The position numbers and the translations under genes are program-made. A stretch of DNA of 64,000 nucleotides from Bacillota bacterium (GTDB lineage Bacteria; Bacillota; DTU065): contig DAIMKF010000006.1 in the NCBI GenBank assembly GCA_036721855.1, forward strand, positions 758-64,757. Direction: 5' to 3'. The notes under the pieces are model-generated. The model was given only the letters and a program-made list of their open reading frames with translations, searched no databases and was not told where the DNA came from. The first letter of the stretch is position 1. Every line of letters starts with the position of its first letter. Shown piece by piece: positions 21,131 through 41,100 of this stretch.

Positions 21131-22225
21131 TCATCGCCCCCTTTTTATAGCCAGAAAGAAACTCCAGGTGCCGATAATAATATTCTGAGTCCATGCTGAT
21201 AAACCTGGCGGCAGGTGACCTCCTTCTCCCAGCACTGAAGATAGTGTAAGTAGGAGATAGTAAAGAAAAACAATAGCAATACTTAAGCCAAACCCTCTTG
21301 CCGAACCCGCTCTGGGAGAAGAGACTGCCAGAGCAGCTCCTAATATTGCAAATATCAGACTGGCAAAGGGCACAGATATCTTTTGATGATACTCAATCAG
21401 GAGTTTCCTAACTTTCTCGCCTTGCTTTTGCAGTAAATTAATTTTTCTTTTTATTTCACGAATTCCCATTTGACTGGGACTTTTTTGTATTACCGAAACA
21501 TCTTGAGGTCGATATTTAATTGCTACCGGCTGGATACTTTTTTGAAATGTCATCTCCGTAGTTGATGTTTCATTATGAAAAGTAGTTTTACCCTCTTTAA
21601 GATACCAAGCCTCATCGCTCCAGATCATTTTCTCAGCTTGAGTTGTGCTCTCGGGTTTTCCTTCAAAAAAGGTAAAGTAACTGACATTAGAAAAAGTGTT
21701 TGTATCCGGATCAAACTCGGCTGCATAGATAAGAGTTTTTAGCTTGCCAGCTTCATAATCCTCCAAAAGCACATTGTGTTTTATCTTAGGCAGAGGTTTT
21801 TGGCTTACCATTTGATTGAAAAGCATTTCATAGCGGAGTATGGCTGCCGGTGCTAAAATATCGTTTACAAACAAACCTAATAGTGTTATGCAAAGCCCAA
21901 ATACTAAAATGGGACGTATAGTACGCCAAAAGCCTTGACCGCAAGCTTGAATAGCAATAATCTCGCTGTTTTGAGACAGTTTGCCTAAAGCTAAAAGCAC
22001 ACCCATCAATGTTGCCATAGGAAGTGCATAGACAAGTATCTGAGGGAATTTCATCAAAGCTAAGTCTAAAGCTGTAAAAAAAGATGCGCCAACACTAACA
22101 GCTACTCGAGCCAAATAGACTAAATCAGCAGCTACAAAGATCCCCGCAAACGCTACCACACCAAAAATAAAGGGGAAAATCAGCTCACTTATTATATATC
22201 TATCTAAAATTGAGTAGTGTTTCAT
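21131..22225 (-). CDS. LPS export ABC permease, LptF/LptG (YjgP/YjgQ) family
   Basis: [26 protein letters not shown] start, six-TM layout with a periplasmic beta-jellyroll insert; 4-nt overlap with lptB. Confidence 0.8.
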
Positions 22226-22941
22226 AAAGAAAAGCGCTCCCCTAAGTAGAGGCGTTTGGCATCGGGATCATTGGCGATAGCTGTTGAACTTCCTGAAACT
22301 AAAATGCGGCCTTCATGCATGATATAGGCTCTATCTGTAATCGAAAGCGTCTCTCTTACATTGTGATCAGTTATTAACACCCCTAACTGTTTTTCTCTTA
22401 ACATGGCAATAATCTCTTGAATATCTGCAACTGCTATAGGATCAACACCCGCAAAGGGTTCATCCAAAAGAATAAAAGAAGGATCAGCAGCCAGGGCCCG
22501 TGCTATTTCTGTTCTCCTTCTCTCTCCTCCCGATAAACGAAACCCTTTTGTTTTTCTGACAATTCCAAGTTTAAATTCTTCGATCAATGCATCTGTCCTG
22601 GTTTTTTGTTGTTTGGAATTAAAGCCTCTAGCTTCAAGAATTGCCATAATATTTTCTTCCACACTGAGTTTGCGAAATACCGAGGGTTCTTGAGGTAAAT
22701 ACCCGATACCATTTAAAGCTCTTTTATACATGGAAAGATGAGTAATATCTTTTTTATCTAAGAAGATTCGTCCACTATTAACACTTTCAAGCCCGACAAT
22801 CATATAAAAAGTGGTGGTTTTCCCTGCGCCGTTTGGCCCTAAAAGTCCAACAACTTCTCCACGGTTAACTTCAATGGAAACATCGTTTACTACCTTGCGC
22901 TGACTGTATATTTTCACAAGATCCTCCGCAATAATACTCAA
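22222..22941 (-). CDS. lptB: LPS export ABC transporter ATP-binding protein
   Basis: [49 protein letters not shown] and [12 protein letters not shown] give a close LptB pattern. Confidence 0.85.
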
Positions 22942-24127: not shown

Positions 24128-25897
24128 TTATTCATCTTCTTTATTGGCTAGGCCATGATAGAGTCTATAATACAGACCGCCTGCTTGCAGCAATTGTGTG
24201 TGTGTCCCTATCTCGGCAATGTGACCATCTTTTAAGACAATTATTTTGTCTGCCTTTTTAATTGTTGACAGCCTATGGGCTATCACCAAAGAGGTGCGTC
24301 CTTTTTGCAGGCTTTCAAAGGCTTCTTGTACAACTCTTTCGCTTTCAAGATCAAGTGCTGAGGTAGCTTCATCAAGAATTAAGATCCTTGGTTGTCTAAT
24401 AATTGCTCGAGCTAAAGCTATTCTCTGTCTTTGCCCACCGGAAAGGTTTACACCTTCTTCCCCAATTGGGGTAAAGTACCCCAGCGGTAGTTTTTCAATA
24501 AATTCATGGGCGTTGGCTTTTTGGGCAGCCCAAATAACCTCATCTAACGAAACCTTCTCTTTGGAGGCTTCAGCCTTACCATAGGCTATACTATCAAAAA
24601 TAGTGCCCGAAAATAAAAAAGTCTCCTGTGGGACTAAACCAATTTGACGTCTAAGTGATCTCAAGGTTACATGAGTTAAATCTTGGCCATCTATTAAAAC
24701 CTTACCTTCTTGAGGATGATAAAAACGCATGATTAAATTGGCGATGGTAGTTTTACCTGAACCACTTGGTCCAACAATAGCAACTACTTCGCCCGGGCTA
24801 ATAGTAAAAGAAACATCAGACAGAATGATTTCTTTTTCATATGAAAAACTGACATTTCTAAACTCGATTTGGCCTTTTGTAACCTCCAGTTCTTTTTGTT
24901 CTTCAACCTCAGCTTCTTTTTCTTCATCCATCAGTTCAAAGATACGTTCAGATGAAGCGAGTGCTTGTTGATAAACTCCAAAAAGCCTTGACAGTGAAGT
25001 AATGGGACTTACAGACATGCCTAAATAACCTATAAAAGTTACCAGAGTTCCCGCTGTAAGTCGGCCTGCTATTACTTCTTTGCTGCCATACCAAATAACA
25101 GTTAAAATGCCGGTTATACTTATAATTTCTATTACCGGTAGCACTAAAGCCATAACTCCAGCTGCTTTGATGTTCACATTAAAGGCCTGCTGGTTAGTGC
25201 TTTTGAGGTTTTCATATTCTCTTTTTTCAGCACCATAGGCTTTAATAATCCTTATCCCGGCTAATACCTCCTGTAGCAAAGCTGAGATATCTGCCAGCCT
25301 AGCTTGAATCTGTTTGGCTAAAGTTCTAATCTTCTTACCCAGGTAAAAAATAGTAAGACTGATAAGAGGCAGTACTAAAAATGCGACCAGGGCTAAATAC
25401 GGATGCAAGTAAAAAGTAATAACTAATATCCCTATACCTGTCACAATTTGATTGAAAAATTCTCCTAACCCCTGACCTACTGCATTTTGCACCACATTGA
25501 TGTCATTGGTTACACGTGAGATAACCTCACCTCGTCTTGCTTTGTGATGATATTCTAAGGGCAAATATAAAAGACGTTTAAAAAGGTCCTCTCTTAAGTC
25601 CCTTACCACCCCACTGCCTACATAAGAAAGACAGAAGTGTTGCGTATAATTCAAAATACCTCGTAAAACATAAAGACCAATAGCCACAAGAGCTAAACGA
25701 TTTAACTCAACTAAGCCAGTAGCAGTGCCAATATCGCTAAGAACCTGGTCTATTAAGCCCTGTCCCAACAGAATAGGTAAATACAAAGCTGTTAACGCTA
25801 GTGCTATTAAAGACAATGTCCCCACAAACGCATAGCCAAGGTAGGGGCGAAGATAAGCTAAAAGACGCCTAGTCACCTTTTTTTTCTCTTTAGTCAC
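24128..25897 (-). CDS. msbA: Lipid A/LPS flippase-type ABC exporter (MsbA-like)
   Basis: Six-TM exporter domain plus NBD (GPSGSGKTT, LSGGQRQRIALARA, ILILDEATSALD). Sits within the lpx/lpt genes. Confidence 0.75.
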   Translation of the reverse strand: MTKEKKKVTRRLLAYLRPYLGYAFVGTLSLIALALTALYLPILLGQGLIDQVLSDIGTATGLVELNRLALVAIGLYVLRGILNYTQHFCLSYVGSGVVRDLREDLFKRLLYLPLEYHHKARRGEVISRVTNDINVVQNAVGQGLGEFFNQIVTGIGILVITFYLHPYLALVAFLVLPLISLTIFYLGKKIRTLAKQIQARLADISALLQEVLAGIRIIKAYGAEKREYENLKSTNQQAFNVNIKAAGVMALVLPVIEIISITGILTVIWYGSKEVIAGRLTAGTLVTFIGYLGMSVSPITSLSRLFGVYQQALASSERIFELMDEEKEAEVEEQKELEVTKGQIEFRNVSFSYEKEIILSDVSFTISPGEVVAIVGPSGSGKTTIANLIMRFYHPQEGKVLIDGQDLTHVTLRSLRRQIGLVPQETFLFSGTIFDSIAYGKAEASKEKVSLDEVIWAAQKANAHEFIEKLPLGYFTPIGEEGVNLSGGQRQRIALARAIIRQPRILILDEATSALDLESERVVQEAFESLQKGRTSLVIAHRLSTIKKADKIIVLKDGHIAEIGTHTQLLQAGGLYYRLYHGLANKEDE

Positions 25898-27116
25898 GGC
25901 CCCACCTCCTTACCAGAGTTTCGGCGATAATCTCAGCTGCATTGCTTTTAGGATATAATTCTTTGAGCTTTATAGAGATCTCATGGAGTTTTTCTTTATC
26001 CTGATAGATAAAAAGAGCAACCTCGGCTACTTGGTTCAGATCCAAAAATCCTCTCAGTTCAGGCACAACTTCTTGATTGGCAAGCAAATTTGGCAAAGCT
26101 GTAGCAGTTATTGAAGCAGCTTTTTTCCAGATAAACCTCTCTTTAATAAATAAACCCAAGTACGGAATACTGCCAATAAGACCAGCTAATCCTGTCAGTG
26201 GGATCTCCCTGGCGATATTTAACGGTAAAACAACAAGCATTGGTAGCCCATAAAAAGCCATCTCCGCTGTATTAGTACCTGGTATAGTTAAAGCAAAAGC
26301 TGATGTTTCCATTATTTCATACTGCTTATTGTAAAAAAAAGGCACCTTGACTCCTGCAGATGTTTCAAGCATATTCTCGTCAATAATTCTACCGGTTACC
26401 CCTTTAAGTAACGGGTTCTGGTTTTTTAGAGCTTGGTATAGCATTGTCTTTTTAATAAACGGAGAGAGGCTAACCACAAATTCCAGATCGGATTGAGCTT
26501 CTTTCATTTTCTCTGCTACACCTAAAAAGAAAGGTAGTAGGCTCTGAAAATGATGGCGACTCCCGGGAAAAAGTGCTATTTGCCTTGGGTTTTTAGATAG
26601 ATTACCATAAGTTAGGTTTGAAAGCATAAGATCGCCAACTATTTGTATCTTATCGGTCCTGACTCTTTTTTTAACTTCTTCTTTTACTTTTTGATTAGGT
26701 ACAAAAACCAGATCTATGTTTTTATTAGCTCTTTTAGTACTGTAAACTGCTACCGGGTAATTCAAAAGATTTCCAAGCCTTTGCGCATGCATAATGTCTC
26801 CACCTAAAAATAAGACACAGCCTGACTTTTCTTTGGGAATTTTAGTCTGTCCCAAAGCCAGCGACCAGTATCTATCGGGGGGATAGACATGCCTGATTGC
26901 TTCTTGTTGTAATAAAAAAGCTGTTTCTTGCCCCGAGGCAAATGTACAAGGGGTTACAACAACATCAACCTTAACCCCAAGATTGTAGAGGGCCTTAGCA
27001 ACAGGTTTGACCCAGGCGGAAGTTTCTCCGGGACTATTAGTTGTTATCACTACCTGCACCACGGGCCACCTCCAAAACAATTTTTGCGGTATTGGTATAA
27101 GCACCTTGACTCCCAA
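25890..27116 (-). CDS. Second LpxB-like (GT19-related) protein of unknown function
   Basis: VVITTNSPGETSAWVKPVAKAL resembles the LpxB N-terminal GE.SGD region, and FPGSRHH parallels LpxB LPGSR. The real start is probably a GTG near 27060, because the ORF-track start overlaps lpxB by 80 nt. Confidence 0.45.
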   Translation of the reverse strand: MGVKVLIPIPQKLFWRWPVVQVVITTNSPGETSAWVKPVAKALYNLGVKVDVVVTPCTFASGQETAFLLQQEAIRHVYPPDRYWSLALGQTKIPKEKSGCVLFLGGDIMHAQRLGNLLNYPVAVYSTKRANKNIDLVFVPNQKVKEEVKKRVRTDKIQIVGDLMLSNLTYGNLSKNPRQIALFPGSRHHFQSLLPFFLGVAEKMKEAQSDLEFVVSLSPFIKKTMLYQALKNQNPLLKGVTGRIIDENMLETSAGVKVPFFYNKQYEIMETSAFALTIPGTNTAEMAFYGLPMLVVLPLNIAREIPLTGLAGLIGSIPYLGLFIKERFIWKKAASITATALPNLLANQEVVPELRGFLDLNQVAEVALFIYQDKEKLHEISIKLKELYPKSNAAEIIAETLVRRWGRD

Positions 27117-28185
27117 GCTTTGGACGAACTTTCCGTAACTTGGCTTGGATCTGTTTATTAGGTGCTGTATCTACCAAAAGAGGCTCTAGATTAGTTACCA
27201 TATTGGAAACGGTAAATTTGTTATGAATAAGTTCGACAACTACTCTTTCATTTAAAATAATATTGGGCAAAGCATAATATTTTACTTTGACCAGTAGCTT
27301 AGTTAGCAGGGCTGTTAATATAGAAAGCTTATAGACAGATACCATTGGACGTGCTAAAAGCGCAGCCTCTAAGGTTACCGTCCCACAAGTGCAAAGACAG
27401 GCAGTTGCCGCAGCTATAGCCTGATGGGTGTTTTTTTCAATTATTACGACCTCAAAATCCGTATCCTTAGTGATATTTATGACCTTTTCCTTCTCAATTG
27501 AAGCGGCTAAAGCTAGAATAACCTGAAGATTTTGATTGGCTTTTTTTAACTCCTTAGCTGCTTCTAGCATCAATTTTAAATGAGTTTTAATTTCCTGGTT
27601 TCTAGAACCCGGTAAAAGTGCTAAGACCGGTTTATTGGCATCAAGATCTAATTCTCTACACGCTGTTTCGCGAGAGATCTCGGTAGGGATTTCTTCTAAA
27701 AGGGGGTGGCCCACCATCTCTATATTGGCGCCGGCAGCTTGGTAAACAGCCAAATCCATAGGCATGATTGCTGCCACTGCATCTACTGTTTGGGCAACTT
27801 TTTTGGCTCTTTTTTGACCCCAAGCCCATGCTGAGGGAGGAACAAAATAGACACAAGAGATCCCCAAACCATGAGCAATTTTAGCCAAACGCATATTAAA
27901 GCCGGGAAAATCTATTAGCACTAGACAATCTGGGCGTCTTAAAATAAGTATATTTTGAAGACGCTTAAGCCATTTTTTAAAAAAGCCAACCAGCTTTAGC
28001 GCTTCTGTAAAGCCCACCACGCTTAATTGGGTCGGATCAAAGATTACCTCTAGACCTTCACTTTCCATAAGAGGACCTCCAAATCCGTAAAAGACGGTCT
28101 TAGGTAGGCTCTCTTTAATAGCTTTAATAAGACTAGCTCCGTAGTAATCCCCGGAGGCTTCTCCGCAAACTATCATTATCTGCAT
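27037..28185 (-). CDS. lpxB: Lipid-A-disaccharide synthase
   Basis: MQIMIVCGEASGDYYGASLIKAIKE, LLPGSRNQEIK, and GTVTLEAALLARPMVSVYK. The ATG at 28185 has a GGGGG RBS; the ORF opens at 28239. Confidence 0.8.
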   Translation of the reverse strand: MQIMIVCGEASGDYYGASLIKAIKESLPKTVFYGFGGPLMESEGLEVIFDPTQLSVVGFTEALKLVGFFKKWLKRLQNILILRRPDCLVLIDFPGFNMRLAKIAHGLGISCVYFVPPSAWAWGQKRAKKVAQTVDAVAAIMPMDLAVYQAAGANIEMVGHPLLEEIPTEISRETACRELDLDANKPVLALLPGSRNQEIKTHLKLMLEAAKELKKANQNLQVILALAASIEKEKVINITKDTDFEVVIIEKNTHQAIAAATACLCTCGTVTLEAALLARPMVSVYKLSILTALLTKLLVKVKYYALPNIILNERVVVELIHNKFTVSNMVTNLEPLLVDTAPNKQIQAKLRKVRPKLGSQGAYTNTAKIVLEVARGAGSDNN

Positions 28186-28207
28186 TCTTTTACCCCCATA
28201 CCGGACC

Positions 28208-29008
28208 CTACTTTGCAAAGCCATAGATCGCCAAACCATTCTCTTTAGCTAGGCTGAAAGCTTCGTCTTTTTCCAGTAAAAAAGCTTTGCCGGCTTCTAC
28301 AGCTAAGACCCTAATTTTAGCAGCTATAGCCTTTTTAATAGTTTCGGCACCAAGTGCAGGTACATCTACACGCCAATCTTGGTTTGTGCGACTGACTTTA
28401 ATGGCCACAGCACCCTCTTTAGCCAGTTGGCCTCCTCTTAAGATAGTGGCATCCGTTCCATCGATAGCTTCGACTGCAAAAACCGTCTTTTTTTTCACCA
28501 CAACAGTTTGTCCGATATCAGCATCTGCAACTATTTTTGCAATTTCAAAGCCAAAAAAGATATCTTCTAGTTCTTCTTTCGTAGGTTCACCTATAATTGC
28601 ACCTTTTTTGGCTACTTCATCTTCTAGGTACTTTGCTTGAGAAGCAACATGGATACCATTTTTCTCAAAACTTTCAATGAGTGCTTTACAGATAGCATCA
28701 TTTTGGAAATTTGGAATACGGCCAAGAATACTTAGCCAAGTTAAGTCGGGCTTAACCTGCAAAAATTCAATCTTGGAGAATCTCCCGGCCATAACTATTT
28801 CGTTAATGCCTTCGGACTTGATATAGTTTATTAGCTTTTCTAATTCTCCTAAATCAAACACTTTGAACTGGACTTTTTCTAAACTAGGTATTTGTTTTTC
28901 AAAAGAACTCAACATTATAACCGGTTCTAAACCTTTTGCTCTCATGCCCCTGGCAATTAAGGTGGGCATTATACCTCCACCGGCTATTATGCCAGCTTTA
29001 CTCCTCAT
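28208..29008 (-). CDS. lpxI: UDP-2,3-diacylglucosamine hydrolase, LpxI type (DUF1009)
   Basis: AGIIAGGGIMPTLIARG start, VMAGRFSK, and DIGQTVVVKKKTVFAVEAIDGTD. Sits between lpxA and lpxB. No lpxH is present in the window. Confidence 0.7.
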   Translation of the reverse strand: MRSKAGIIAGGGIMPTLIARGMRAKGLEPVIMLSSFEKQIPSLEKVQFKVFDLGELEKLINYIKSEGINEIVMAGRFSKIEFLQVKPDLTWLSILGRIPNFQNDAICKALIESFEKNGIHVASQAKYLEDEVAKKGAIIGEPTKEELEDIFFGFEIAKIVADADIGQTVVVKKKTVFAVEAIDGTDATILRGGQLAKEGAVAIKVSRTNQDWRVDVPALGAETIKKAIAAKIRVLAVEAGKAFLLEKDEAFSLAKENGLAIYGFAK

Positions 29009-30287: not shown

Positions 30288-31196
30288 TTAATATCCCTTT
30301 CTGTTCTTTTTATTTGACATTTTCATCTGCTCGGCTATTTTTTGGGCTAACAAAGCATTATGTCTATGACCGGTTTTTACGGCTATGATGTGAGCCAAAA
30401 GACGATATTCTCCTATAAGTGCCAGATCTCCATAGAGATCTAAAAGCTTGTGCCTGGCAACTTCGTCTTCAAAGCGTCGTTCATTGGCAAAGCCATTGCT
30501 ATCGATTAAAACAACCATACTTTCATCTCCACCTAAAGCTAATCCTTTTGAGCGCAAATCATTTAGCCGTTCTTTAAAAGCAATGGTTCTGGCCGGAGCT
30601 AATTCAGTGAGAAAATCATCTTTCTTATCTAAGTAATCAAAAAACATATCTGGAATAGGCATCCCTTCAGAGACAAATGTATAAGAAAGTCTCAGCTGAT
30701 TAGCGGGAACAGCAACAATAAAGGCTTGTCCATCATTAATAGTTATCGTCTCTTTAAGCTTAAACACAGGTTTTGCTTCCTGTTTTACCTGACCACCTAA
30801 AATAAGCTTTTTATAAAACTCCAGAGCTGAACCGTCTAAGGCTGGAAGCTCCGGACCATCAAGCTCTATTTTTATATTATCCAGTCCTAGACCCTGACAA
30901 GCAGCCAGAAAATGCTCTACTGTGAGAATTTTGTCCTTCCCAACATTTAAAGCCGTACAAAGAGGGAGCTCTAAACGGTTTTGCCAAAAAACTCTAACTT
31001 CCGGCTGATTCTCTAAATCAGTTCTGATAAATCTCCTTCCGTAATATGCCTCTTCAGGCAGCACTTTCATTGTCACTACCTTACCTGTATGTAACCCTCT
31101 ACCACTAATTATGACAGGTTTTGCCAGTGTTTGCTGCATAGTTTTAGCAAGTAAGACCCAAAGAATTGGAGACTGACTCGCTTCCTCCTTTAACAT
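30288..31196 (-). CDS. lpxC: UDP-3-O-acyl-GlcNAc deacetylase
   Basis: QQTLAKPVIISGRGLHTGKVV, TVEHFLAACQGLGLDN, and HKLLDLYGDLALIG. The family-typical start is M20 (31139); the ORF opens at 31196. Confidence 0.9.
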   Translation of the reverse strand: MLKEEASQSPILWVLLAKTMQQTLAKPVIISGRGLHTGKVVTMKVLPEEAYYGRRFIRTDLENQPEVRVFWQNRLELPLCTALNVGKDKILTVEHFLAACQGLGLDNIKIELDGPELPALDGSALEFYKKLILGGQVKQEAKPVFKLKETITINDGQAFIVAVPANQLRLSYTFVSEGMPIPDMFFDYLDKKDDFLTELAPARTIAFKERLNDLRSKGLALGGDESMVVLIDSNGFANERRFEDEVARHKLLDLYGDLALIGEYRLLAHIIAVKTGHRHNALLAQKIAEQMKMSNKKNRKGY

Positions 31197-31350: not shown

Positions 31351-31384
31351 AGTAAGAAGCAGGTCCAAAGACCTGCTTCTTACT
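31351..31384 (-). other. Perfect 15-bp stem-loop overlapping the ABC ATPase stop codon, no U-tract
   Basis: AGTAAGAAGCAGGTC caaa GACCTGCTTCTTACT. The stop codon TAA (31380-31382) lies inside the stem. Confidence 0.5.
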
Positions 31385-32120
31385 GTGCTAACTTACTTAA
31401 AGCTTCTTTTGTATCCAAGAGTCTTTCTCTGTACATTATACCAAGATAAGAGGCTGGCTGAGCAAATATTTTCTGAGGCGAAGCTTCTTCCACAATTTTG
31501 CCGGATTCCATAAGAACCAGCCGATCTGCCACTTTTAGAGCAAACGGCATCTCATGGGTTACTACCAACATCGTTTTTCTCTGGGCTAAAGAATCCATAA
31601 TTCGCAAAATCTCATGGACATACATAGGATCAAGAGCTGCTGTTGGTTCATCCCAAAAGATAATATCCGGATCTAGAGCCAGAGCTCTGGCAATACCTAC
31701 CCGTTGTTTTTCACCACCGGAGAGCTGTCTGGGATAGCGAAACCTTTTTTCCCAAAGGCCAACTGATTTTATGGCTTTTTCCGCTTGCGAAATATTTCGG
31801 TTGCCTTCCCAAAGGGCTAACAAAACATTTTCCAGTACGGTAAAATGCTCAAGCAACTGAAATTCTTGAAAAACTATACCCATTTTGCGCCTTTTTTTTC
31901 GTAGCATCTTTTCCGAAAGTGCTTGCAAATTGACACCTTCAAACCAGACTTCTCCTGCCTGAGGTTTAATAAGCCCTAGGGCTACTCTTATAAGAGTAGA
32001 TTTGCCACAACCACTCGGACCTGTCAAAACCACGGTTTCTCCTTCGTTGATGGTAAGATTAATATCTGCGAGAATCTTAATTTTATTTCTTTCTAAAAGT
32101 ATATTGTGTAATTCAAGCAT
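31380..32120 (-). CDS. ABC transporter ATP-binding protein (type-I importer-like NBD)
   Basis: GPSGCGKST, LSGGEKQRVGIARAL, IIFWDEPTAALDP and VTHEMPFA. The start ATG overlaps the upstream permease stop (ATGCTTGA). Confidence 0.85.
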   Translation of the reverse strand: MLELHNILLERNKIKILADINLTINEGETVVLTGPSGCGKSTLIRVALGLIKPQAGEVWFEGVNLQALSEKMLRKKRRKMGIVFQEFQLLEHFTVLENVLLALWEGNRNISQAEKAIKSVGLWEKRFRYPRQLSGGEKQRVGIARALALDPDIIFWDEPTAALDPMYVHEILRIMDSLAQRKTMLVVTHEMPFALKVADRLVLMESGKIVEEASPQKIFAQPASYLGIMYRERLLDTKEALSKLAQ

Positions 32121-33963
32121 GCTTAAACCTCCCCTGAGAAAGCAGCTTGCGGCGATTAATCAGCTGCCAAAGACCCGGTCTGCCGTCTGGGACAATAACC
32201 TGTCGGTAAAGTTCTCTCTTAGAAAGGCCCAATGCCTCGCCTGCTTCAATGCTTTTGGCATTAAGAGGCGAAATACGATTGGCCATGGTAATTAAGAGTG
32301 CACTACCTAAACCTCCGGCTACTATATAGATTACTTTAACTAACAGTGTAGTTGAAAAAGGCATGATTAAAGCTACCAGGCTTATTTCGGTTATACCTAG
32401 AATCCAGCCATAAAAAGGAGCCAAGAAGTTTTGTTTCATAAGCAGGTAACTGCCCCATAACGAATGATCAATGGCTATAAAGACCCAAAGAAGAATGACT
32501 GCGGCTGCTAAAGCCGCTAAGGGTACTATACCGCCAACTACTCCTCCAATTTGGCTTTTAATATCCTCTTTTATTTCAGCTGCGGGTTTGCAAACAACCC
32601 CGGGGATTGTAGGAGCTTTTTCGGTAGTTACAACCCTAAGTGCCTTTTGGCGATTTAAGGATTCTATATCACGCCAGCTTTTATATATATCTTCGTCGCT
32701 CCAAGATGGCAAACTTTCCTTGAGTTTTAATAGTGGGTCTGCGGGTAGAGTTTTAATCCATTCAAGAACCTTGTTCGCAAGATCAGCCCGGAAGTTTTCC
32801 GGTAATCTCCCAATTCGATCCCACAAAATCAGTATCTCCAGCTTAGATCTCAAGGCTTCAGGCAACTCTAAGTTTTGTTTTCTTGCCAACTGTTCTAAAT
32901 CTCTAAGAAGTAGTGAAAAGTCTTGGCCTTGCAGAATCTTGGTTGCTAGTTCTTTGGCGCTTACTTTTAAATCGGTAGCATCGGAAACAGGCGTCCAAGA
33001 CTCAAGATCCCGACGTGGACTTTCTAAACGATAAGTTGGTAGTACTTCTTTAAGACGTCCGCTCCCATCAAGCAGATAAGCCTTTTCATTGCCTTTTAAC
33101 TTTAAGGAGTCTCCGCTTACAAGGTATATACCATCTGTAAAAACACGGGCACGAAATTCGGTTTTGGGCTTGGAACCGATTTTAAGAGATTGATTAGATA
33201 AAATAAGATCAGCTCCGACTGGAAGTTTTTTGTCAAAGACTAATCGGGAATTATAACTTTTTAAAAGTCTGACTGCATCACCCATAACTCCTTCTGTGGA
33301 AGCAGCTAAATACCAGTATTCTTTGCCTTCCAAAGCCTTTTCTATTTCTTTTCGGGCTTTGGCAGCTTCTTGATTAGTCTGATCGGTTAACTCCAGTTCC
33401 CAAACATAGTAAGGAGCAGTTAGAGTCCTTAGCTTATTCTGAACGCTTTCCAAATGCCTTCTATCACGAGCAACCACATAAAGCCCTGTAGGCCCTTTGG
33501 CTGCAAAGCGTATTTCAGGCCAGGTATTTACCTGTTTAATTAATTTAGGATATACCTCCTGAGGTATTCCTTGCACTATAATTGCTGTATCCAGTAAAAG
33601 AGCTAATCCGGCATAACCCGGCAGAGGACCGACAAGTTTAGCTACCTCATCTAAAGCACCGTTTTTCAAATCCTGTTCACTAAATCCTATCAAAATGTGT
33701 GTCTTATCACCTAGTGTTTTACCTACACGATAGCGAAAAGCTTCTCGGCCGGAGTATGTTTCTTGTAAACCTTGCAAAAAACCCAGGGTATTTTTCTTTT
33801 CTACCTGGACAACAACTTGGTAATCTTTTCCCCCGACCAAATCATCTAATCCCCTTTGTACATAGAAGGAAAAGCCATGACCAGCGGCAAGAAGTGCAGT
33901 TGTGAGCAAAATAATTTCCAGAAAAATTACTATGGCTAAATCTGTGTGAATTCCACCACGCAT
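32113..33963 (-). CDS. Atypical ABC membrane component: N-terminal TM, ~440-aa periplasmic domain, three TMs and an EAA coupling loop, then termination
   Basis: EAGEALGLSKRELYRQVIVPDGRPG matches the EAA loop (EAA...G.......F..I.LP) of type-I permeases. Only about 20 aa follow it, so the last two core helices are absent. Confidence 0.5.
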   Translation of the reverse strand: MRGGIHTDLAIVIFLEIILLTTALLAAGHGFSFYVQRGLDDLVGGKDYQVVVQVEKKNTLGFLQGLQETYSGREAFRYRVGKTLGDKTHILIGFSEQDLKNGALDEVAKLVGPLPGYAGLALLLDTAIIVQGIPQEVYPKLIKQVNTWPEIRFAAKGPTGLYVVARDRRHLESVQNKLRTLTAPYYVWELELTDQTNQEAAKARKEIEKALEGKEYWYLAASTEGVMGDAVRLLKSYNSRLVFDKKLPVGADLILSNQSLKIGSKPKTEFRARVFTDGIYLVSGDSLKLKGNEKAYLLDGSGRLKEVLPTYRLESPRRDLESWTPVSDATDLKVSAKELATKILQGQDFSLLLRDLEQLARKQNLELPEALRSKLEILILWDRIGRLPENFRADLANKVLEWIKTLPADPLLKLKESLPSWSDEDIYKSWRDIESLNRQKALRVVTTEKAPTIPGVVCKPAAEIKEDIKSQIGGVVGGIVPLAALAAAVILLWVFIAIDHSLWGSYLLMKQNFLAPFYGWILGITEISLVALIMPFSTTLLVKVIYIVAGGLGSALLITMANRISPLNAKSIEAGEALGLSKRELYRQVIVPDGRPGLWQLINRRKLLSQGRFKHA

Positions 33964-34045
33964 GAGTCTCCCTCCTCTCGCCTCAATTATAGCAGAATCA
34001 ACATCTCTGCCCCATTGGTAAGTTCCTGCATTTTAAACAGAAGCT

Positions 34046-34075
34046 AGAAAAAAAGAGGGGCGGTTAGCCCCTCTT
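34046..34075 (-). terminator. Rho-independent terminator after the aminotransferase gene
   Basis: AAGAGGGGC taac cGCCCCTCTT TTTTTC on the minus strand, immediately after the stop. Confidence 0.7.
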
Positions 34076-34077
34076 CT

Positions 34078-35457
34078 CTATTTACGATTAAAAACACCCG
34101 CTAAAATAGAACTTGAACTTTTTACTGCCATTCCTAGAAAACTTTTATTCGTTTCGAAAATTTTATCAAGTGAGTCAACCACATGATCTATTTCCTCTCT
34201 CTTTACCACAAGAGGAGGTTCTAGCCTGACAACATTGGGATTATTTAGGGTATAGGCGGTAATGACACCATATTTATTTTGCAGTTGTCCCGCCACCAAA
34301 GAACCCAAATACTCTTCTGAAGCGCGGGAGAGAGCTCCTCCGCTTATCTTATCGAGCATACCTTTTGGTTGTTCAAATTCCAAGCCAATTAAAAGCCCCC
34401 GGCCGCGAACTTCTTTGATCAGACCATATTTCCCCTTCAAAGTCTGAAGTTTATTTAACAGATAATCTCCCAACTCTAGGGCTCTTCCGATTAGATTGTC
34501 TTTTTGGATAACCTCCAAAGCAGCTATCCCGGCAGCAGCAGCCCAAGTATTGCCGCCAAAGGTTGTGGTGTGTAAAAGACACTTTTCTTTGGTGCCATAG
34601 GCTTTGTTCCAAATCTCTTCGGTGGTAATAAATACCGAGGAAGGCATAATGCCACCACTTAGAGATTTGGCTATACACATTATATCAGGCTTGGCCTCAT
34701 CCCATTCACAGGCAAACATTTTGCCGGTTCTGCCAAGACCGGTCTGAATTTCATCGGCGATAAACAAAGCTCCATAGGCGTGACAAACTTCTTCTACAGC
34801 CTTCAAATAGCCTTTATCCGGAACTATAATTCCACCTTCACCTTGAATAGGTTCAACGATAAAAGCGGCCACATCGCCTTGTTTTAATCGTTCCTCAAGC
34901 GCTTTAATATCGTTGAAGGGAATCTTGTCACAAGCAGGAACCAGGGGTCTGAAAGGCTCCTGGTACTTTTGTCTGCCGGTTAGAGATAAAGCACCCATAG
35001 TCTTGCCATGAAAAGAACCTATTGTTGAAATAATTGCCGGCTTTTGTGTTGCAATACGAGCAACTTTAAGAGCACCTTCCACAGCTTCAGCGCCACTGTT
35101 GCCAAAGAAACAATGTTTCAGATCTCCTGGTGTAATCTCAGCTAAATTATGTGCCAGCACTCCAGCCAAAGCAGGTAGTGAGGCTTGCATGAAATTAGGA
35201 CGGCCTACAACCTTTTTTATTGTCTCAATAACATAAGGGTGATTGTGGCCGGTGTTTAATGAACCATAACCACCTAAAAAATCAAGGTATTCATTGCCGT
35301 CACTATCCCATACTTTTACGCCCTCAGCTTGGACAAAGAGTTTGTCAAAATCAAGCATGCCAAGCAATGAAGCAAAAGCTGTATTGCCATATTCACGATG
35401 GAGATCGATAATGGATTTTCTGTCTAATTTAAGAGCTTCTTCAATTGTAATCAACAA
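34078..35457 (-). CDS. Class-III PLP-dependent aminotransferase (putrescine / diaminobutyrate / acetylornithine aminotransferase-like)
   Basis: YLDFLGGYGSLNTGHNHP, FFGNSGAEAVEGALK, DEIQTGLGRTGKMFA, and the PLP-Lys context IMCIAKSLSGG. Confidence 0.85.
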   Translation of the reverse strand: MLITIEEALKLDRKSIIDLHREYGNTAFASLLGMLDFDKLFVQAEGVKVWDSDGNEYLDFLGGYGSLNTGHNHPYVIETIKKVVGRPNFMQASLPALAGVLAHNLAEITPGDLKHCFFGNSGAEAVEGALKVARIATQKPAIISTIGSFHGKTMGALSLTGRQKYQEPFRPLVPACDKIPFNDIKALEERLKQGDVAAFIVEPIQGEGGIIVPDKGYLKAVEEVCHAYGALFIADEIQTGLGRTGKMFACEWDEAKPDIMCIAKSLSGGIMPSSVFITTEEIWNKAYGTKEKCLLHTTTFGGNTWAAAAGIAALEVIQKDNLIGRALELGDYLLNKLQTLKGKYGLIKEVRGRGLLIGLEFEQPKGMLDKISGGALSRASEEYLGSLVAGQLQNKYGVITAYTLNNPNVVRLEPPLVVKREEIDHVVDSLDKIFETNKSFLGMAVKSSSSILAGVFNRK

Positions 35458-35466
35458 CTATTCCCC

Positions 35467-36099
35467 CTACTTGGTTTTAGTTTTAAACTCTAATTTACCC
35501 TTGACTTTATAAGTACCCTTGTCTATATTCGCTTCTAAATAGCCATCAGGGCTACTTAAGGTGCGATCTTCTTCGAGAAGTTTGATCTTGCCGGATAACT
35601 TAGCCACACCGGTTTTATCACTAAACTCGAGAATATCACCATAGATAGTTTTCTTCTCATCGTTAATGATTATATTGCCTTCGGCTTTGACATCTTTAAC
35701 TTCTGTCCATAGTTCTACCTCGTTGGCATTGATTGTGAGCTCTTTGTCTTCCCTTTTTTGTTTAATACAAACACCGCCTAGGAGCTTAGCATACTTATTA
35801 TCGGTATCAAAGAAGACCTCTTTGGAGGTAATATTCATATTATCATTGGTAATAAAACATTCACCAAAGGCTCTGGCAATTTTTGTCTTGGTATTATAGA
35901 TCAGCTTCTGGGTGACAATTTGAGTTTTCCCCTGGCTAATCACTATCTCTTTGCCAACTACAGTAACCTCATCACCTTCGCCGCCAACCATTTCACCGTC
36001 TTCGCTAACAGTAAACCATAACTCTTCGTCAGAGGCAACAGCTGTACAACAAATAATAAAAGCTAAGACTACCATAAGAAGTGCTAGTTTTTTCTTCAT
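35467..36099 (-). CDS. LptA/OstA_N-like periplasmic beta-jellyroll protein
   Basis: Signal peptide. Repeated strand pairs typical of OstA_N (ITSKEVFFDTDNKYAKLLGGVCI, INANEVELWTEVKDVKAEGNIII, IYGDILEFSDKTGVAKLSGKIKL). Position next to lptC/lptD. Confidence 0.55.
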   Translation of the reverse strand: MKKKLALLMVVLAFIICCTAVASDEELWFTVSEDGEMVGGEGDEVTVVGKEIVISQGKTQIVTQKLIYNTKTKIARAFGECFITNDNMNITSKEVFFDTDNKYAKLLGGVCIKQKREDKELTINANEVELWTEVKDVKAEGNIIINDEKKTIYGDILEFSDKTGVAKLSGKIKLLEEDRTLSSPDGYLEANIDKGTYKVKGKLEFKTKTK

Positions 36100-36136: not shown

Positions 36137-36772
36137 TTATCTTAATTTAGAACCGACCCGCACTGTTAAAGGTCCTTTTACGCGGTAGCTTTGGGTCTCC
36201 CAGTTAAATTCTAAGCTTGAACCATAGACACTAAGACCATCGTTATCTTTTAATTCCATGTTTTCGCTTGCATAGAGGATCTTTTTACTTACATCACCTG
36301 AAAGCTTGTCGGAAATAAGTGTGTACCTGTCTGTTTTTACAACAGATGTACCTTCTGTTTCAAACTGTTCTTTGGAGATTTCATATATCACCTTAGGAGC
36401 TGCCAATTCGAAATCTTTTCCTACAGCTGTAATCAGTACATTTCCTATAGCTACTAACCTTTCTTTTTTTTCATACCAATTGGCAATATTAGCTGTCAGT
36501 TTGAGCTCTGGTTTTCCTTCACTATAGGTAAGCACTTCTCCTAGTGCCTGAAACTCAAAATGGGTATCATATTCTATCAGTTGTTCAGCTTCCAAAGAAA
36601 AGGTCGGCTTACCATCTTTGCGTTCAACGATCTCAATCATTTCGATCACTTTTTTATACTCGCTGGGCAATGGTTCGCGTGCAGGCTTTTGGGGTGCCTG
36701 CGTACCACAACCCGTTAAAAGCGATAGGGCTGCAATTAATAAAACCAGGTTTTTAGGCACCCTCAAAGTCAA
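36137..36772 (-). CDS. LptC/OstA-like protein with a lipoprotein signal peptide
   Basis: Lipobox LLTGC. Jellyroll-like strands (LKLTANIANWYEKKERLVAIGNVLI, LAAPKVIYEISKEQFETEG). Confidence 0.45.
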   Translation of the reverse strand: MTLRVPKNLVLLIAALSLLTGCGTQAPQKPAREPLPSEYKKVIEMIEIVERKDGKPTFSLEAEQLIEYDTHFEFQALGEVLTYSEGKPELKLTANIANWYEKKERLVAIGNVLITAVGKDFELAAPKVIYEISKEQFETEGTSVVKTDRYTLISDKLSGDVSKKILYASENMELKDNDGLSVYGSSLEFNWETQSYRVKGPLTVRVGSKLR

Positions 36773-36795: not shown

Positions 36796-39096
36796 TTAAT
36801 TTCCAGAACTAAGAGCTGAGAGCATATCACTGCTAAATTCCAAACCACTGCTACTGGCTTTAACTTTCATCGGTTTATTACCAATAGCTTTAATTCTAAA
36901 CTCTAGCCAAACAGCTTTGTTGATAGAATCATAAGTTAGATCAAGCTCTCTACAATGCAAATCTCTGCCTAAAGTAACTTTTAGAGTAGTATATTTATTG
37001 GTTTGGGGGTTGAATACAGCTTCACCTCGTAAACTATACAAACCATATTTAAATGTACCTTTACCATTTAATTCTTTGAGTTGCCATTTATCTTTATCTT
37101 TGCTGTAGTTAATACGACCTTCTAAGCTCAGGTTTTCCATAGGTTCAACTTTAATGTTTCCCGCAACTTTAATTGCCTCAAAGGGAACTAGATTATAGAC
37201 ATGCTCAATATTAGCCGTAAGTTTACCATAACTAATTCTGTGGGTGTTATCTAAAGTTTTAAAAGTTGCTTTAGTAAGATCATAACCTGTTTTTATTTCG
37301 GTGGTAACAGCATAAAAGGTATTACGAAGACCAAAATCCAAGCTGTGAATGTTAGATAGTTTATCAAAGCTAAACGGTGAATTGCCGAAAACATCGCGTT
37401 TGGTGTAGTCAATGGTAAAATTCCAGTTCCTTGCCGGCTGATAGCCAAGGCCCAAAGCACTGCGCCAGGAAAGAACATAAGGGCTGAAGGTCTTTAGATT
37501 ATAAACAGTACCCTGACCCTCACCAAGAAGATTGAAGTTTAATCTTGTAGTTATTCTATAGGTTTTTCGACCTAAAACACCTCTGAAACTTAGTTTATCG
37601 CTTTCAATTTTTCTTGGCTCTTCTTTATAATGGCCAACAGTAGTCTCAAACAATATAGGCCAAGTTAAAAGGCTTAGGCTACGAGTCCTTAAAACTAATT
37701 CAGGTTGGCGAAATAACCTACTGTAGGTAGTACTAGCAGTTTCTTCCTGACTTTTATCTTCTTGCTGCCACCTAAGGGTGCCTGTGAGATATTTGGCATT
37801 ATAATTCAAGGTACCATCATAACTTAGAACTGTTATCCAAGGTTGGTTGGCTTTTTGATAATTGCTAAAATTAACAGCTAAATTAGCTCTTACGGCATTG
37901 CTAAGCTTTAGAGACTGACTGGTCTCCAATTTAAATTCTTCTTTAACAGTGGCCGGAGTATTCTCATCACTGTAGCTAAATCTAAGATTACCCGAATAAC
38001 TACTGCCACTGAAACTATAATTTAAACTGGTGTTTTTTAATAATTTGGGAGATAGCTCTGTATAATCCTCTTTATAGGCACCTGTTCCTGAGAGTCTAAA
38101 ATTACCTTTGGCGATGTTAAAACTTCCTGAGGTATCAAAAAGCTTAATCTTGTTAAAAAAAGGATTGTAAATAAGGTAATAACGGGCATTGAGATTATTA
38201 TTATCCTTTGAATAAGCATGCTGTATACCTTGACCAATTCCCAATTTTTTTAAGTAATCAATGTTTATCTCCCCTTTGTTGTAAGCATTTAGGGTATAAA
38301 CATAGGCCAGTTTAACAAAAAAGCCCTCTTTAGCTGATGATCCGAACTGAGGAAACTTCCAATAGTTCTTTTTTTCTTTTAAAGAAACCTGCCAATACGG
38401 GAAATAAAACAAGGGTAATTTCCCTTCTTTATAATAGAGGTTGCGCATAATAAGTTTATCATCTTCATAAATCTCGATTATTTTGGCGGCAATATGATAA
38501 TGAGGATTGTCAAGATTACAAGTGGTAATTTGGCCTCCTTCCAGGCGCAGGTAGTTTTTTTCAAAACTCATTGTTTGACCATAAAGGTAGATCTCATCCT
38601 TAAATTTTTCATTCTCAATGTGACCTCTTACCCCTTTGATGGTACCGGTTTTTGTTTTGTAATTATAGATAAGTTCTTCCCCGGTAAATTCTTTTGTACC
38701 TTCTACAACCCTAACTCCCCCTGAAAAATGTACCACATTGTTTTCCAAATCGACTTCAGCAATATTTCCTTTGGCTGTAAAGTCTGAGCCGCGAATGTTG
38801 ACATCACCTTTGATGGTAACTTTTTTTTCATCACCAGATAGTTCATCATCGGCTGATACTAAAATCTCATCCTCAGCAATATTATCAGATTCTTCTTCTT
38901 CTTTTTTATTAGTTTCTAAAACTTCAGTTTCCAGGGCACTTTCTTGATTGGCTTTTTCTTTTAGTTCAACTTCTGATGAGATGGCAGTCTTTCCATTAAG
39001 GGATGATTTGGCATCATCATTAATTAGATCCTCAGCTAACACACTCATGCTAAGGACTATAATAATTCCTAATATAATTATGCTTGTTTTTTTCAA
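36796..39096 (-). CDS. LptD-like LPS-assembly outer-membrane protein
   Basis: Signal peptide and acidic linker. OstA_N region (VTIKGDVNIRGSDFTAKGNIAEVDLENNVVHFSGGVRVVEG...LIYNYKTKTGTIKGV), then about 550 aa of beta-strand-pattern sequence. Confidence 0.65.
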   Translation of the reverse strand: MKKTSIIILGIIIVLSMSVLAEDLINDDAKSSLNGKTAISSEVELKEKANQESALETEVLETNKKEEEESDNIAEDEILVSADDELSGDEKKVTIKGDVNIRGSDFTAKGNIAEVDLENNVVHFSGGVRVVEGTKEFTGEELIYNYKTKTGTIKGVRGHIENEKFKDEIYLYGQTMSFEKNYLRLEGGQITTCNLDNPHYHIAAKIIEIYEDDKLIMRNLYYKEGKLPLFYFPYWQVSLKEKKNYWKFPQFGSSAKEGFFVKLAYVYTLNAYNKGEINIDYLKKLGIGQGIQHAYSKDNNNLNARYYLIYNPFFNKIKLFDTSGSFNIAKGNFRLSGTGAYKEDYTELSPKLLKNTSLNYSFSGSSYSGNLRFSYSDENTPATVKEEFKLETSQSLKLSNAVRANLAVNFSNYQKANQPWITVLSYDGTLNYNAKYLTGTLRWQQEDKSQEETASTTYSRLFRQPELVLRTRSLSLLTWPILFETTVGHYKEEPRKIESDKLSFRGVLGRKTYRITTRLNFNLLGEGQGTVYNLKTFSPYVLSWRSALGLGYQPARNWNFTIDYTKRDVFGNSPFSFDKLSNIHSLDFGLRNTFYAVTTEIKTGYDLTKATFKTLDNTHRISYGKLTANIEHVYNLVPFEAIKVAGNIKVEPMENLSLEGRINYSKDKDKWQLKELNGKGTFKYGLYSLRGEAVFNPQTNKYTTLKVTLGRDLHCRELDLTYDSINKAVWLEFRIKAIGNKPMKVKASSSGLEFSSDMLSALSSGN

Positions 39097-39109: not shown

Positions 39110-40192
39110 CTAAACCCGTTCCACTTCCCACAAAAGAATAACCCCTATGATTAAAAATAGGACTGTCGGTAGCCAAGCCCCTAGTATGGGGGTTATGATT
39201 CCTTCTATACCAAGTGTGCGAAAAAGAGCGCTCAATACATAGTACAGTAGTGCAATTCCAATGGCTAACCCCACACCTAAAAAAGTCCCGCCTTTGCCGA
39301 ATTTGATACTCAAAGGTGCGCCTAAAAGTACAAACACTAAACTTACTAAAGGTATAGATACCTTGCGATGGTAATCAACAATCAATTCATTAACATTGGC
39401 ACCTGATCTGCCAAAAATAGCAATCTGCTCGGCTAATTCTTTTCTTGTCATTTCACTGGTACTTTTTTGCACTCCAAAAATTGTTTCTAAATCCTGACCA
39501 ATATTAATAGCTACTTCTTTAAACTTTTTCTCACTGGTAACAAAGCCTGCCTCATCGAATTCCCTACTCATGCCATCTCTCAAAATAAGTGTTTTTTCTT
39601 CGTAACCGGCTTCTTTGGCTGAGATAATCTCCGGCAAGCCAATATAGTTGGTCTGATAAACCAAAACATCTTTCATAACACCATTAGTCCTATCTACATA
39701 ACGCACATAAAAATAGTAATTGCCTGTCCCTCTAAAGAATACATCTTCTTCGATTTGGGGTAAGTTATCTTGAAAGATCACTTTTCTAATAACCTCTTCA
39801 AACTCAGCATTAGCCCTAGGAGCTATGTAATCACCCAATATAAAAGACATAGCACTAATAGCAATTCCCAAGAGAATAAGAGGGGCTGCCAATGAAATAA
39901 AACTGATACCTGCTGTTCTCATAACAGTCATCTCTGAGTCTTTAACTAAACGTCCCAGAGAAATAAAAACTGCCAAAAGAACTGCCACAGGTAAGGTGAG
40001 AATAATAATATCTGGCAACTTAAACCAAATAAGTTTCAGAACTACGGTTAAAGGACTGCGGCGTGAAACCAAATAATCCATCAGCTCAAAAAGAAGATCA
40101 CTCATAAGGATTACTGTCATTCCAGCGATGCCCATTAAAAATGGTGCGGTGAATTCTTTAAGTATATAGCGTTTGAAAATCTTATTGTGCAT
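39110..40192 (-). CDS. LPS export ABC permease, LptF/LptG family (second copy)
   Basis: FKRYILKEFTAPFLMGIAGMTVILM start; same architecture as 21131..22225. The ATG at 40192 is preferred over the GTG at 40204. Confidence 0.8.
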   Translation of the reverse strand: MHNKIFKRYILKEFTAPFLMGIAGMTVILMSDLLFELMDYLVSRRSPLTVVLKLIWFKLPDIIILTLPVAVLLAVFISLGRLVKDSEMTVMRTAGISFISLAAPLILLGIAISAMSFILGDYIAPRANAEFEEVIRKVIFQDNLPQIEEDVFFRGTGNYYFYVRYVDRTNGVMKDVLVYQTNYIGLPEIISAKEAGYEEKTLILRDGMSREFDEAGFVTSEKKFKEVAINIGQDLETIFGVQKSTSEMTRKELAEQIAIFGRSGANVNELIVDYHRKVSIPLVSLVFVLLGAPLSIKFGKGGTFLGVGLAIGIALLYYVLSALFRTLGIEGIITPILGAWLPTVLFLIIGVILLWEVERV

Positions 40193-40213
40193 TGAATCAC
40201 CCACTTTAAGAAT

Positions 40214-41097: not shown

Positions 41098-41100
41098 CTC

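Follow-up and report, generated by a model that had tools for sequence, protein, structure and literature searches.

In type-I ATP-binding cassette (ABC) permeases such as MetI, ModB and MalFG, the helices following the EAA coupling loop help to line and gate the translocation pathway, and within the polar-amino-acid importer (PAAT) lineage N-terminal fusions of extracytoplasmic domains to the permease are known. Another layout is found in the type-VII systems MacB, FtsEX, LolCDE and YbbAP, which have four transmembrane segments (TMs) per protomer, a large periplasmic domain between TM1 and TM2, beta-alpha-beta (ferredoxin/Porter-like) modules outside, an envelope biogenesis context and no obvious pore. 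In this study, we analyzed a putative ABC system encoded by two genes on the minus strand of a 64,000-nucleotide (nt) stretch of DNA from a Bacillota bacterium (GTDB lineage Bacteria; Bacillota; DTU065; GenBank assembly GCA_036721855.1, contig DAIMKF010000006.1, positions 758 to 64,757), in the following called the window, by whose numbering positions are given. The pair comprises the open reading frame (ORF) of a 616-amino-acid (aa) membrane protein (32113..33963) and that of a 246-aa ABC ATPase (31380..32120). Its ORF, its orthologues, a family of 114 members and a structural model suggest that the membrane subunit combines a 'half type-I' transmembrane domain (TMD) with a large extracytoplasmic domain, and the pair is conserved, intact and unnamed in diderm Firmicutes.

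With type-I importers (HisQM/ArtQM/GltJK/GlnP, MetI) the membrane subunit shares core helices 1-3, represented by its TM2-TM4, and the EAA loop; as in MetNI, one TMD gene is combined with one ATPase gene. Unlike these importers, it stops short of the two helices that follow the EAA loop, is extended N-terminally by one TM and an extracytoplasmic domain of ~440 aa, scores below the Pfam threshold and is encoded in a lipid A/Lpt cluster, with no gene for a solute-binding protein seen in its operon in the loci examined. All features listed above for type-VII systems recur in the pair, but profile homology to them was not found, the recognized coupling element is of the EAA type and follows TM4, whereas that of type-VII systems lies in the TM2-TM3 loop, the ATPase is of importer lineage, and in the model the sole stalk-like extension is that of TM1. 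In lactococcal GlnPQ, a PAAT system with fused substrate-binding domains, and in MalF with its P2 loop, an extracytoplasmic domain likewise stands right before the first core helix, and a GlnQ-like ATPase is a further point of likeness; in the pair, however, the permease core is incomplete, and no periplasmic-binding-protein fold was among the listed top 50 Foldseek matches. LptB2FG-C is an ABC machine of the same cluster which, working at the outer leaflet of the inner membrane, extracts lipopolysaccharide (LPS) and passes it on to a periplasmic domain, but its TMDs belong to another fold family (LptF/G, PF03739). The pair does not replace Lpt, since the window has its own LptB (22222..22941) and LptF/G (21131..22225 and 39110..40204). 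Judged by these comparisons, the pair is a strict member of neither type VII nor type I; it would operate like a type-VII system but is of independent origin.

Assembly of the outer membrane (OM) in diderm Firmicutes informs the reconstruction of OM gain and loss, and several of its steps are without known machinery (PMC5007114). The window is the conserved diderm-Firmicute envelope locus described by Antunes et al. (PMC5007114), in whose main text and gene table the pair is not among the LPS, Lpt or 'new OM-related' genes. No description of the pair was found in literature searches, and the database names of family members are merely 'hypothetical protein' or 'ABC transporter permease'.

EAA loop and relation to type-I permeases

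By hydropathy, TMs of the membrane subunit were located at residues ~8-30, 472-497, 513-535 and 540-562. They are followed by the EAA motif SIEAGEALGLSKRELYRQVIVPDGRPG at residues ~571-597, and the protein ends at residue 616 with a basic tail. TM2-TM4 (residues ~472-562; 32278..32550, minus strand) were assigned to the first three type-I core helices by hhalign, Pfam profile positions 36-108 and invariant columns. The subsequent EAA coupling loop RISPLNAKSIEAGEALGLSKRELYRQVIVPDGRPG (residues ~563-597; 32173..32277, minus strand) was delimited by profile comparison, hidden Markov model (HMM) alignments and family conservation; a cytoplasmic location of this loop is consistent with the basic C-terminal tail. 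In place of the canonical TM4-TM5 there is only this short tail LWQLINRRKLLSQGRFKHA with the stop codon (32113..32172, minus strand; tail-length survey), so that the membrane protein halts where MetI starts its fourth helix.

Pfam searches, as proposed in an initial annotation of the window, returned BPD_transp_1 (PF00528) as the sole family match of the membrane protein, but below threshold: the full-length protein had an E-value of 0.0066, and its C-terminal segment (residues 440-616), which covered profile positions 36-108 of 184, one of 0.0026; the scores of 16.6-17.9 bits did not reach the Pfam gathering cut-off of 26.4. Two of 19 other family members matched BPD_transp_1 at E<0.01, and neither the window protein nor the 19 distant relatives matched FtsX (PF02687) or MacB_PCD.

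For more sensitive comparisons, reference sets were taken from Escherichia coli (NC_000913), with MetI, GlnP, HisQ, HisM, ArtQ, ArtM, GltJ and GltK representing type I and FtsX, LolC, LolE and MacB representing type VII. An HMM of the C-terminal region of the family aligned the last TM and the motif to the third core helix and the EAA loop of type-I permeases (HisM 18.5 bits, HisQ 16.1, MetI 14.5; also ArtQ and GltK). When the C-terminal region was compared by hhalign with the canonical permeases (MetI/His/Art/Glt/Gln), Prob was 94.6 (E 6.5e-8, 146 columns), and TM2, TM3, TM4 and the EAA motif fell on MetI helices 1-3 and the EAA loop; against the type-VII alignment, Prob was 16.7. Profile-profile comparison of full alignments gave Prob 91.5 for type I (E 8.6e-7), with residues 563-614 corresponding to MetI 111-161 of 217, versus Prob 7.4 for type VII. 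The EAA motif was kept in all 111 relatives examined.

On the basis of these profile-profile and HMM alignments, the EAA stretch is homologous, beyond chance, to the type-I BPD_transp_1 coupling loop, whose pattern is EAA-x3-G-x9-I-x-LP. The claim of the initial annotation that a clear EAA loop is present was thereby borne out (Prob 91-95% for type I against 7-17% for FtsX/LolC/LolE/MacB), and nothing in the profile searches spoke for a motif other than the BPD_transp_1 coupling loop. Its likening of the pair to FtsEX, LolCDE and MacB held for the topology but not for descent, as homology was not detectable (Prob 7-17%) and the ATPase is not of the LolD/FtsE lineage.

C-terminal end of the family

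The six clusters of close orthologues (63-90% identity) all have 616 aa, except for one alternative start, and share the tail SIEAGEALGLS..ELYRQVIVP.GRPGLWQ..N..KLLS..RF..A. An exhaustive HMMER search of 1.84 billion representatives yielded 114 relatives, mostly of 570-900 aa, of which 85 are full-length and the rest shorter and probably fragmentary; a profile search with the 90-sequence alignment returned just the six close orthologues. The relatives align with the query over residues ~1-200 and again over residues ~455-608; all of them carry SPV...E..AG.ALGL....IMREIVIP.GRPGLL..LNRR...F, after which they end. Following [RK]PG, the tail has a median length of 13 residues (range 9-67; 111 members) and a hydrophobic window in none of the 111 members; the window protein has 19 residues after RPG. 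The conserved basic tail LNRRxxxF[KR] resembles a finished C-terminus.

The neighborhood of the gene was inspected in the same respect. In 77 of 80 loci, the ATPase gene lies directly downstream with a gap of mostly <30 nt, and no locus has more than one TMD and one ATPase gene. The single 600-nt gap between permease and ATPase genes contains a non-membrane junk ORF. No conserved small ORF with two helices was detected beside the pair in 80+ loci, and no fragment gene occurred between the two genes in the loci examined.

Since neither further helices nor a non-coupling motif were found in the relatives, the short C-terminus belongs to the design of the family. The absence of two helices after the EAA loop, which had been noted for the window protein, extends to the 111 relatives, and no such helices were encoded in frame (111 members) or in a neighboring fragment (80 loci). 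The related suggestion that this is not a recent truncation is supported by the common end point of the close orthologues and the 111 distant relatives. Searches of Pfam, NCBIfam and PDB, the latter by sequence and by fold, gave no family name for the membrane subunit.

Topology and extracytoplasmic domain

The order of one TM, a large domain, three TMs and an EAA loop with a stop ~20 residues further on, as originally described, agreed with hydropathy and with a structural model. This AlphaFold monomer model was based on a 90-sequence alignment and reached pLDDT 88.9 and pTM 0.66; an earlier model from seven close sequences (pLDDT 60) was not used. Helices were modelled at residues 4-43, 468-509, 515-533 and 540-559, short coupling helices at 569-577 and 582-593, and two short helices in the tail. 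TM1, the N-terminal anchor (residues ~8-30 by hydropathy; 33874..33942, minus strand), is thus part of a modelled helix that runs on outside the membrane to residue 43. The loop between TM2 and TM3 has only ~15 residues (498-513) and was modelled as an extension of the TM2 helix; D499 of the LDH motif, an invariant residue, lies in it where TM2 ends on the cytoplasmic side.

The extracytoplasmic domain (residues ~31-471, ~440 aa; 32551..33873, minus strand) was described from model secondary structure and local Foldseek matches. Two beta-alpha-beta-beta-alpha-beta modules (residues 50-122 and 127-191) come first. Residues 197-314 are mixed and beta-rich, residues 316-437 form a bundle of seven helices, and three strands (441-466) run into the long TM2 helix (468-509). 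The bundle was modelled with lower confidence and is the part which varies in length across the family; correspondingly, the N-terminal ~200 residues are conserved and the center is length-variable.

Tandem ACT domains of aspartate kinases have a ferredoxin-like fold. They were the only credible Foldseek matches in PDB, and these were local (prob 0.8-0.99, ~146 columns); with the whole model no global match to PDB was obtained, and no solute-binding protein, MacB, LolC, FtsX or MetI was among the listed top 50 matches. RND pumps appeared with E~2e-3, but at prob <=0.23 and a TM-score of ~0.1 this was not considered meaningful. By hhalign, no similarity was found between modules 1 and 2, and the N-terminal domain matched neither type-VII nor type-I proteins (Prob 0.2 versus type-VII periplasmic domains). 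The separate periplasmic segments matched no Pfam family, in line with the earlier remark that the ~440-aa domain has no recognizable motif, and NCBIfam gave no meaningful match for the window membrane protein and 19 family members. Sequence searches of PDB gave one match with the close-orthologue profile, which was judged to be due to chance; with the family profile, the central helical region drew coiled-coil noise only.

ATPase subunit

The ATPase gene (31380..32120, minus strand; Pfam ABC_tran 1.3e-37) encodes all motifs in intact form, i.e. Walker A (GPSGCGKS), Q-loop (VFQ), signature (LSGGE), Walker B with the catalytic glutamate (IIFWDEP) and H-loop (THE). The best NCBIfam match was GlnQ with 200 bits. 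In blastp searches against E. coli, GlnQ also ranked first (42% identity, 178 bits), followed by GltL (165), ArtP (154), MetN (152) and HisP (150), while LolD (127), FtsE (126), the ATPase domain of MacB (120) and the window's own LptB (107) scored lower; the NCBIfam ranking agreed with this order. Identity to GlnQ, GltL, ArtP and HisP was 40-43%. As importer ATPases are the closest relatives in both searches and the permease has the profile matches described above, both subunits are judged, from sequence comparison, to descend from the polar-amino-acid importer lineage.

Genomic context and distribution

The window contains genes for FlgI/FlgH/FlgA together with rod genes, a SpoIVB-like peptidase, TamB, BamA and Skp; LpxD, LptF/G, an LptD-like protein, two LptC/LptA-like proteins and an aminotransferase, then the ABC pair; LpxC, FabZ, LpxA, LpxI, LpxB, an LpxB-like protein and MsbA; and LptB, a second LptF/G, DUF3084, SLH/porin proteins and a Wza-like SLBB protein. 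Close orthologues of the pair have an identical surrounding gene order, and their clusters derive from metagenome-assembled genomes (MAGs) named 'Firmicutes/Bacillota bacterium'.

To describe the context across the family, 80 loci from GTDB genomes were surveyed, which had been retrieved from a 19-sequence subset with the single pattern MREIV[IV]Px[GA]R and are therefore biased towards Negativicutes-like subfamilies. The order [TMD]-[ATPase]-lpxC-fabZ-lpxA-…-lpxB-msbA was present in 59 of them, including Pelosinus, Sporomusa, Anaerospora, Dendrosporobacter, Lucifera, Propionispora, Massilibacillus, a Veillonellaceae MAG and many Bacillota MAGs. The remaining 21 loci comprise 14 with a second paralogue, all but two of them in genomes whose LPS-linked copy was also sampled; two paralogues without an adjacent ATPase gene (L057, L059); four truncated contigs, among them L037, which ends ahead of any ATPase gene; and one locus in which lpxB and lptB come next instead. 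An lpxC-linked arrangement was also found in Limnochordales (P0103) and in the divergent representatives P0054, P0087, P0024 and P0136, three of these five having an overlap between the ATPase gene and lpxC. In the P0059/P0141 lineage (L093, L094), the pair is located between lptC-lptA and lpxB-like-lptB. Overall, linkage to the envelope cluster was seen in the 59 of 80 genome loci and in nine further contig loci, and all sampled lineages, namely Negativicutes, Limnochordales and several MAG lineages, have the pair in the LPS/OM cluster. The association with LPS genes pointed out in the initial annotation thus reaches well beyond the window, with lpxC next to the pair in the majority of the surveyed loci and in divergent lineages. 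Neither nutrient-metabolism genes in the LPS-cluster synteny of the pair nor a solute-binding-protein gene among the called genes beside it were found in the loci examined; the latter could be encoded elsewhere.

The second half-permease paralogue occurs in Pelosinus, Sporomusa and Anaerospora (loci L005-L016, L051, L056, L057 and L059). In four loci it trails a TetR-MFP-RND efflux operon, a number too small for RND-efflux linkage to be taken as a general rule. The paralogues of L057 and L059 might work with the ATPase encoded by the LPS-linked pair. Two MAGs labelled 'Patescibacteria group' and 'Bacteroidota' (L064 and L070) carry the Bacillota-type order [TMD]-[ATPase]-lpxC-fabZ-lpxA; they are likely mis-binned, since the study that produced them also yielded Bacillota MAGs whose context is nearly identical. 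In some lineages, genes for sugar modification are inserted into the lpxC-fabZ-lpxA block just after the ABC pair (L099, 10912-11997 and 13404-14375; L100, 9174-10157). They encode a DegT-type aminotransferase, a GFO/IDH/MocA oxidoreductase and a nucleotidyltransferase, the first two of which resemble the GnnA/GnnB route to GlcN3N-lipid A.

Gene organization and local signals

The gene layout given in the initial annotation was reproduced in full, each feature being found at its position. The end of the permease gene, ...AAG CAT GCT TGA, shares 8 nt with the start of the ATPase gene, ATG CTT GAA, and this overlap ATGCTTGA (32113..32120, minus strand; read directly from the sequence) includes the permease stop codon and the ATPase start codon. 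The ribosome-binding site of the ATPase gene, AGGGGAGG, is located within the upstream permease gene. With overlap and ribosome-binding site arranged in this way, the two genes are considered translationally coupled, as had been proposed from the junction.

Upstream of the 616-aa gene, a strong ribosome-binding site GAGGAGGGAG (~33968-33977, minus strand) was read directly from the sequence, and an extended -10-like element TGcTATAAT (33986..33994, minus strand) was noted from its match to the consensus only. Further upstream, an intrinsic terminator (GAAGAGGGGC-TAAC-GCCCCTCTT, then T7; ~34046-34075, minus strand) closes the upstream lpt-aminotransferase unit. At the ATPase stop codon there is a hairpin AGAAGCAGGTC-TTTG-GACCTGCTTCT without a T run (31355..31381, minus strand), which may attenuate transcription or stabilize RNA ahead of lpxC (30288..31196), located 183 nt beyond the ATPase gene. 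The placement of the pair between the terminator of the lpt operon and lpxC needs one amendment: terminator and lpxC are real, but a class-III aminotransferase gene (34078..35457; Pfam Aminotran_3 2.5e-106) intervenes between the LptA/LptC-like genes and the terminator. This gene (minus strand) is the last one of the lptC/lptA transcription unit, its product resembles putrescine, PigE and acetylornithine aminotransferases, and it is present at this position only in the window's own lineage (L001-L004), being absent there in other lineages.

Further genes of the envelope locus

The window also contains several genes of interest apart from the pair. The genes for LptF/G (39110..40204) and the LptD-like protein (36796..39096) are separate and adjacent, 13 nt apart. 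In a 'Clostridia/Bacillota bacterium' MAG lineage, their counterparts (LptD_N + DUF3769 in the LptD-like part) form one ORF of 1092-1104 aa (L093, 4221-7499; L094, 4153-7467), implying one polypeptide that would link an inner-membrane ABC permease to a part of an OM-type LPS translocon. Two adjacent genes on the minus strand (35467-36099 and 36137-36772) encode ~210-aa proteins that are both LptC/OstA-like; the lipoprotein-like N-terminus LLTGCG of the second suggests a lipid-anchored LptC/LptA relative. Of the tandem LpxB-like genes (25890-27116 and 27037-28239, both minus strand), one is a clear LpxB and one encodes a weak LpxB-like protein of 408 aa; this weak paralogue is retained in related loci, and in the P0059/P0141 lineage (L093, L094) it comes immediately after the ABC pair.

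At the edge of the envelope locus, a gene on the minus strand (11898-15206) encodes a 1102-aa protein with a Poly_export (Wza-like) N-terminus and 12-13 SLBB domains, which is unusually long for the polysaccharide-export type. The SpoIVB-like S55 peptidase gene (51511-53187, minus strand) adjoins tamB-bamA and has the same neighbor in the Limnochordales locus L096, so that a sporulation protease gene appears to be retained within the OM cluster. Conserved genes without a firm family encode proteins of 273 aa (40276-41097), 208 aa (41101-41727) and, between msbA and lptB, 376 aa (22938-24068), all on the minus strand; the 208-aa ORF has a faint YjbH-like match, which is clear in Sporomusa (L039, 5114-5746).

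Discussion

From the missing helices and the overall topology, mechanotransmission or extraction, and not nutrient import, on balance probably fits the pair best. In such a mechanism, two 616-aa subunits would sit on a dimer of the GlnQ-like ATPase, giving a 2:2 complex as in MetNI. Starting from an importer of the polar-amino-acid type, the membrane subunit would have retained core helices 1-3 together with the coupling helices of the EAA loop but dispensed with the final two, by which the translocation pathway is completed in MetI/MalFG-type permeases, and would have gained the N-terminal anchor helix and the ~440-aa extracytoplasmic domain with its ferredoxin/ACT-like modules and helical bundle. 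Closing and opening of the ATPase dimer would be passed via the coupling helices and TM1-TM4 to the outward-facing domain. Work would thereby be done on the periplasmic side or at the outer leaflet of the inner membrane, and nothing would pass through a pore, whose absence is suggested by the role of the post-EAA helices in MetI, ModB and MalFG. One possibility is that the outward domain extracts an amphipathic molecule of the envelope or passes it on; another is that it drives or senses a partner in the periplasm.

The near-constant fusion of the pair into the lpxC-fabZ-lpxA operon makes a task in lipid A/LPS or OM assembly most likely, a point on which we are less confident than on the mode of action. 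The fuller proposal can be offered only tentatively: the pair could represent an unrecognized ABC class in which a half type-I TMD was independently turned into a four-helix, MacB-like mechanotransmitter or extractor, as part of an ancestral core of lipid A/LPS or OM biogenesis in diderm Firmicutes.

Several observations speak against this picture. The homology to BPD_transp_1 is remote and below the gathering score, and the sole sequence match to a solved structure, obtained with the family profile against PDB, was ArtQ at E 0.16. Since Foldseek gave no global match, the packing of the TMs is not comparable with that of MetI or MacB; moreover, as only the monomer was predicted, the eight helices of a dimer could still enclose a pore. 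Synteny denotes association, not function, and Negativicutes hold a second paralogue outside the LPS cluster, sometimes beside an RND efflux operon and sometimes without an ATPase gene, which indicates that the family is not confined to lipid A work.

Such a pore is the core of one competing explanation, according to which the pair is a real transmembrane importer or exporter: the eight dimer helices would form a path, with TM1 replacing a lost helix, and the domain would be a tethered substrate-binding or receptor domain of the GlnPQ kind. The TMD remnant and the ATPase are both of the polar-amino-acid importer lineage, in which N-terminal extracytoplasmic fusions are generally known, and the monomer model is compatible with a dimer pore. 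Nevertheless, we regard this as unlikely, as the pathway helices after the EAA loop are absent in 111 of 111 members, SBP_bac was not matched in Pfam, no periplasmic-binding-protein fold was among the listed top 50 Foldseek matches, and the LPS-cluster synteny is near-invariant and without nutrient-metabolism genes. Somewhat less likely still is that the missing helices or a second TMD are supplied in trans, resulting in a complete type-I-like or hybrid transporter. Components may be shareable between loci, given the paralogues L057 and L059 without an adjacent ATPase gene, and the LPS cluster encodes several small proteins that are membrane-bound or unknown, the 273-aa and 208-aa ORFs (40276-41727) among them. 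Against this stand the lack of a conserved two-helix ORF beside the pair in 80+ loci, the gap of mostly <30 nt between permease and ATPase genes, of which the one of 600 nt holds nothing but a non-membrane junk ORF, and the LNRRxxxF[KR] tail with its likeness to a finished C-terminus.

The topology with four TMs per protomer is identical to that of MacB, FtsX and LolCDE, ferredoxin-like beta-alpha-beta modules are shared with them, and there is a weak local likeness between A-R-I-S-P-V and the MacB C-terminal A-R-L-D-P-V. It nonetheless seems very improbable that the pair is a divergent type-VII member with a convergent EAA-like motif: hhalign Prob was 16.7 and 7.4 for type VII compared to 94.6 and 91.5 for type I, FtsX or MacB_PCD were not matched in Pfam, the N-terminal domain reached only Prob 0.2 against type-VII periplasmic domains, the TM2-TM3 loop has just ~15 residues, and the ATPase is nearer to GlnQ than to LolD, FtsE or MacB. 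The short C-terminus, taken alone, would also be expected of a pseudogene, of a gene truncated recently or of a faulty assembly. The chance of this is practically negligible, because all orthologues and 111 relatives from independent assemblies have a common end, the tail motif has been conserved, and stop codon and ATPase start are translationally coupled.

If mechanotransmission or extraction is indeed the task of the pair, a possible role would be the extraction of OM lipoproteins or lipids in lineages without Lol; alternatively, the pair could couple the periplasmic LPS status to the presumably co-transcribed LpxC step. With its genes nearly always joined to that of the committed step in lipid A synthesis, the pair offers a concrete candidate, amenable to genetic tests, for one of the OM assembly steps in diderm Firmicutes without known machinery. 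It would then be the first case of a type-I importer scaffold shorn of its translocation helices but keeping its coupling helices, and would constitute an independent route to the design of MacB, FtsX and LolCDE with four helices and a large periplasmic domain. Thereby, it would also bear on the re-use of ABC motors for work outside the membrane.

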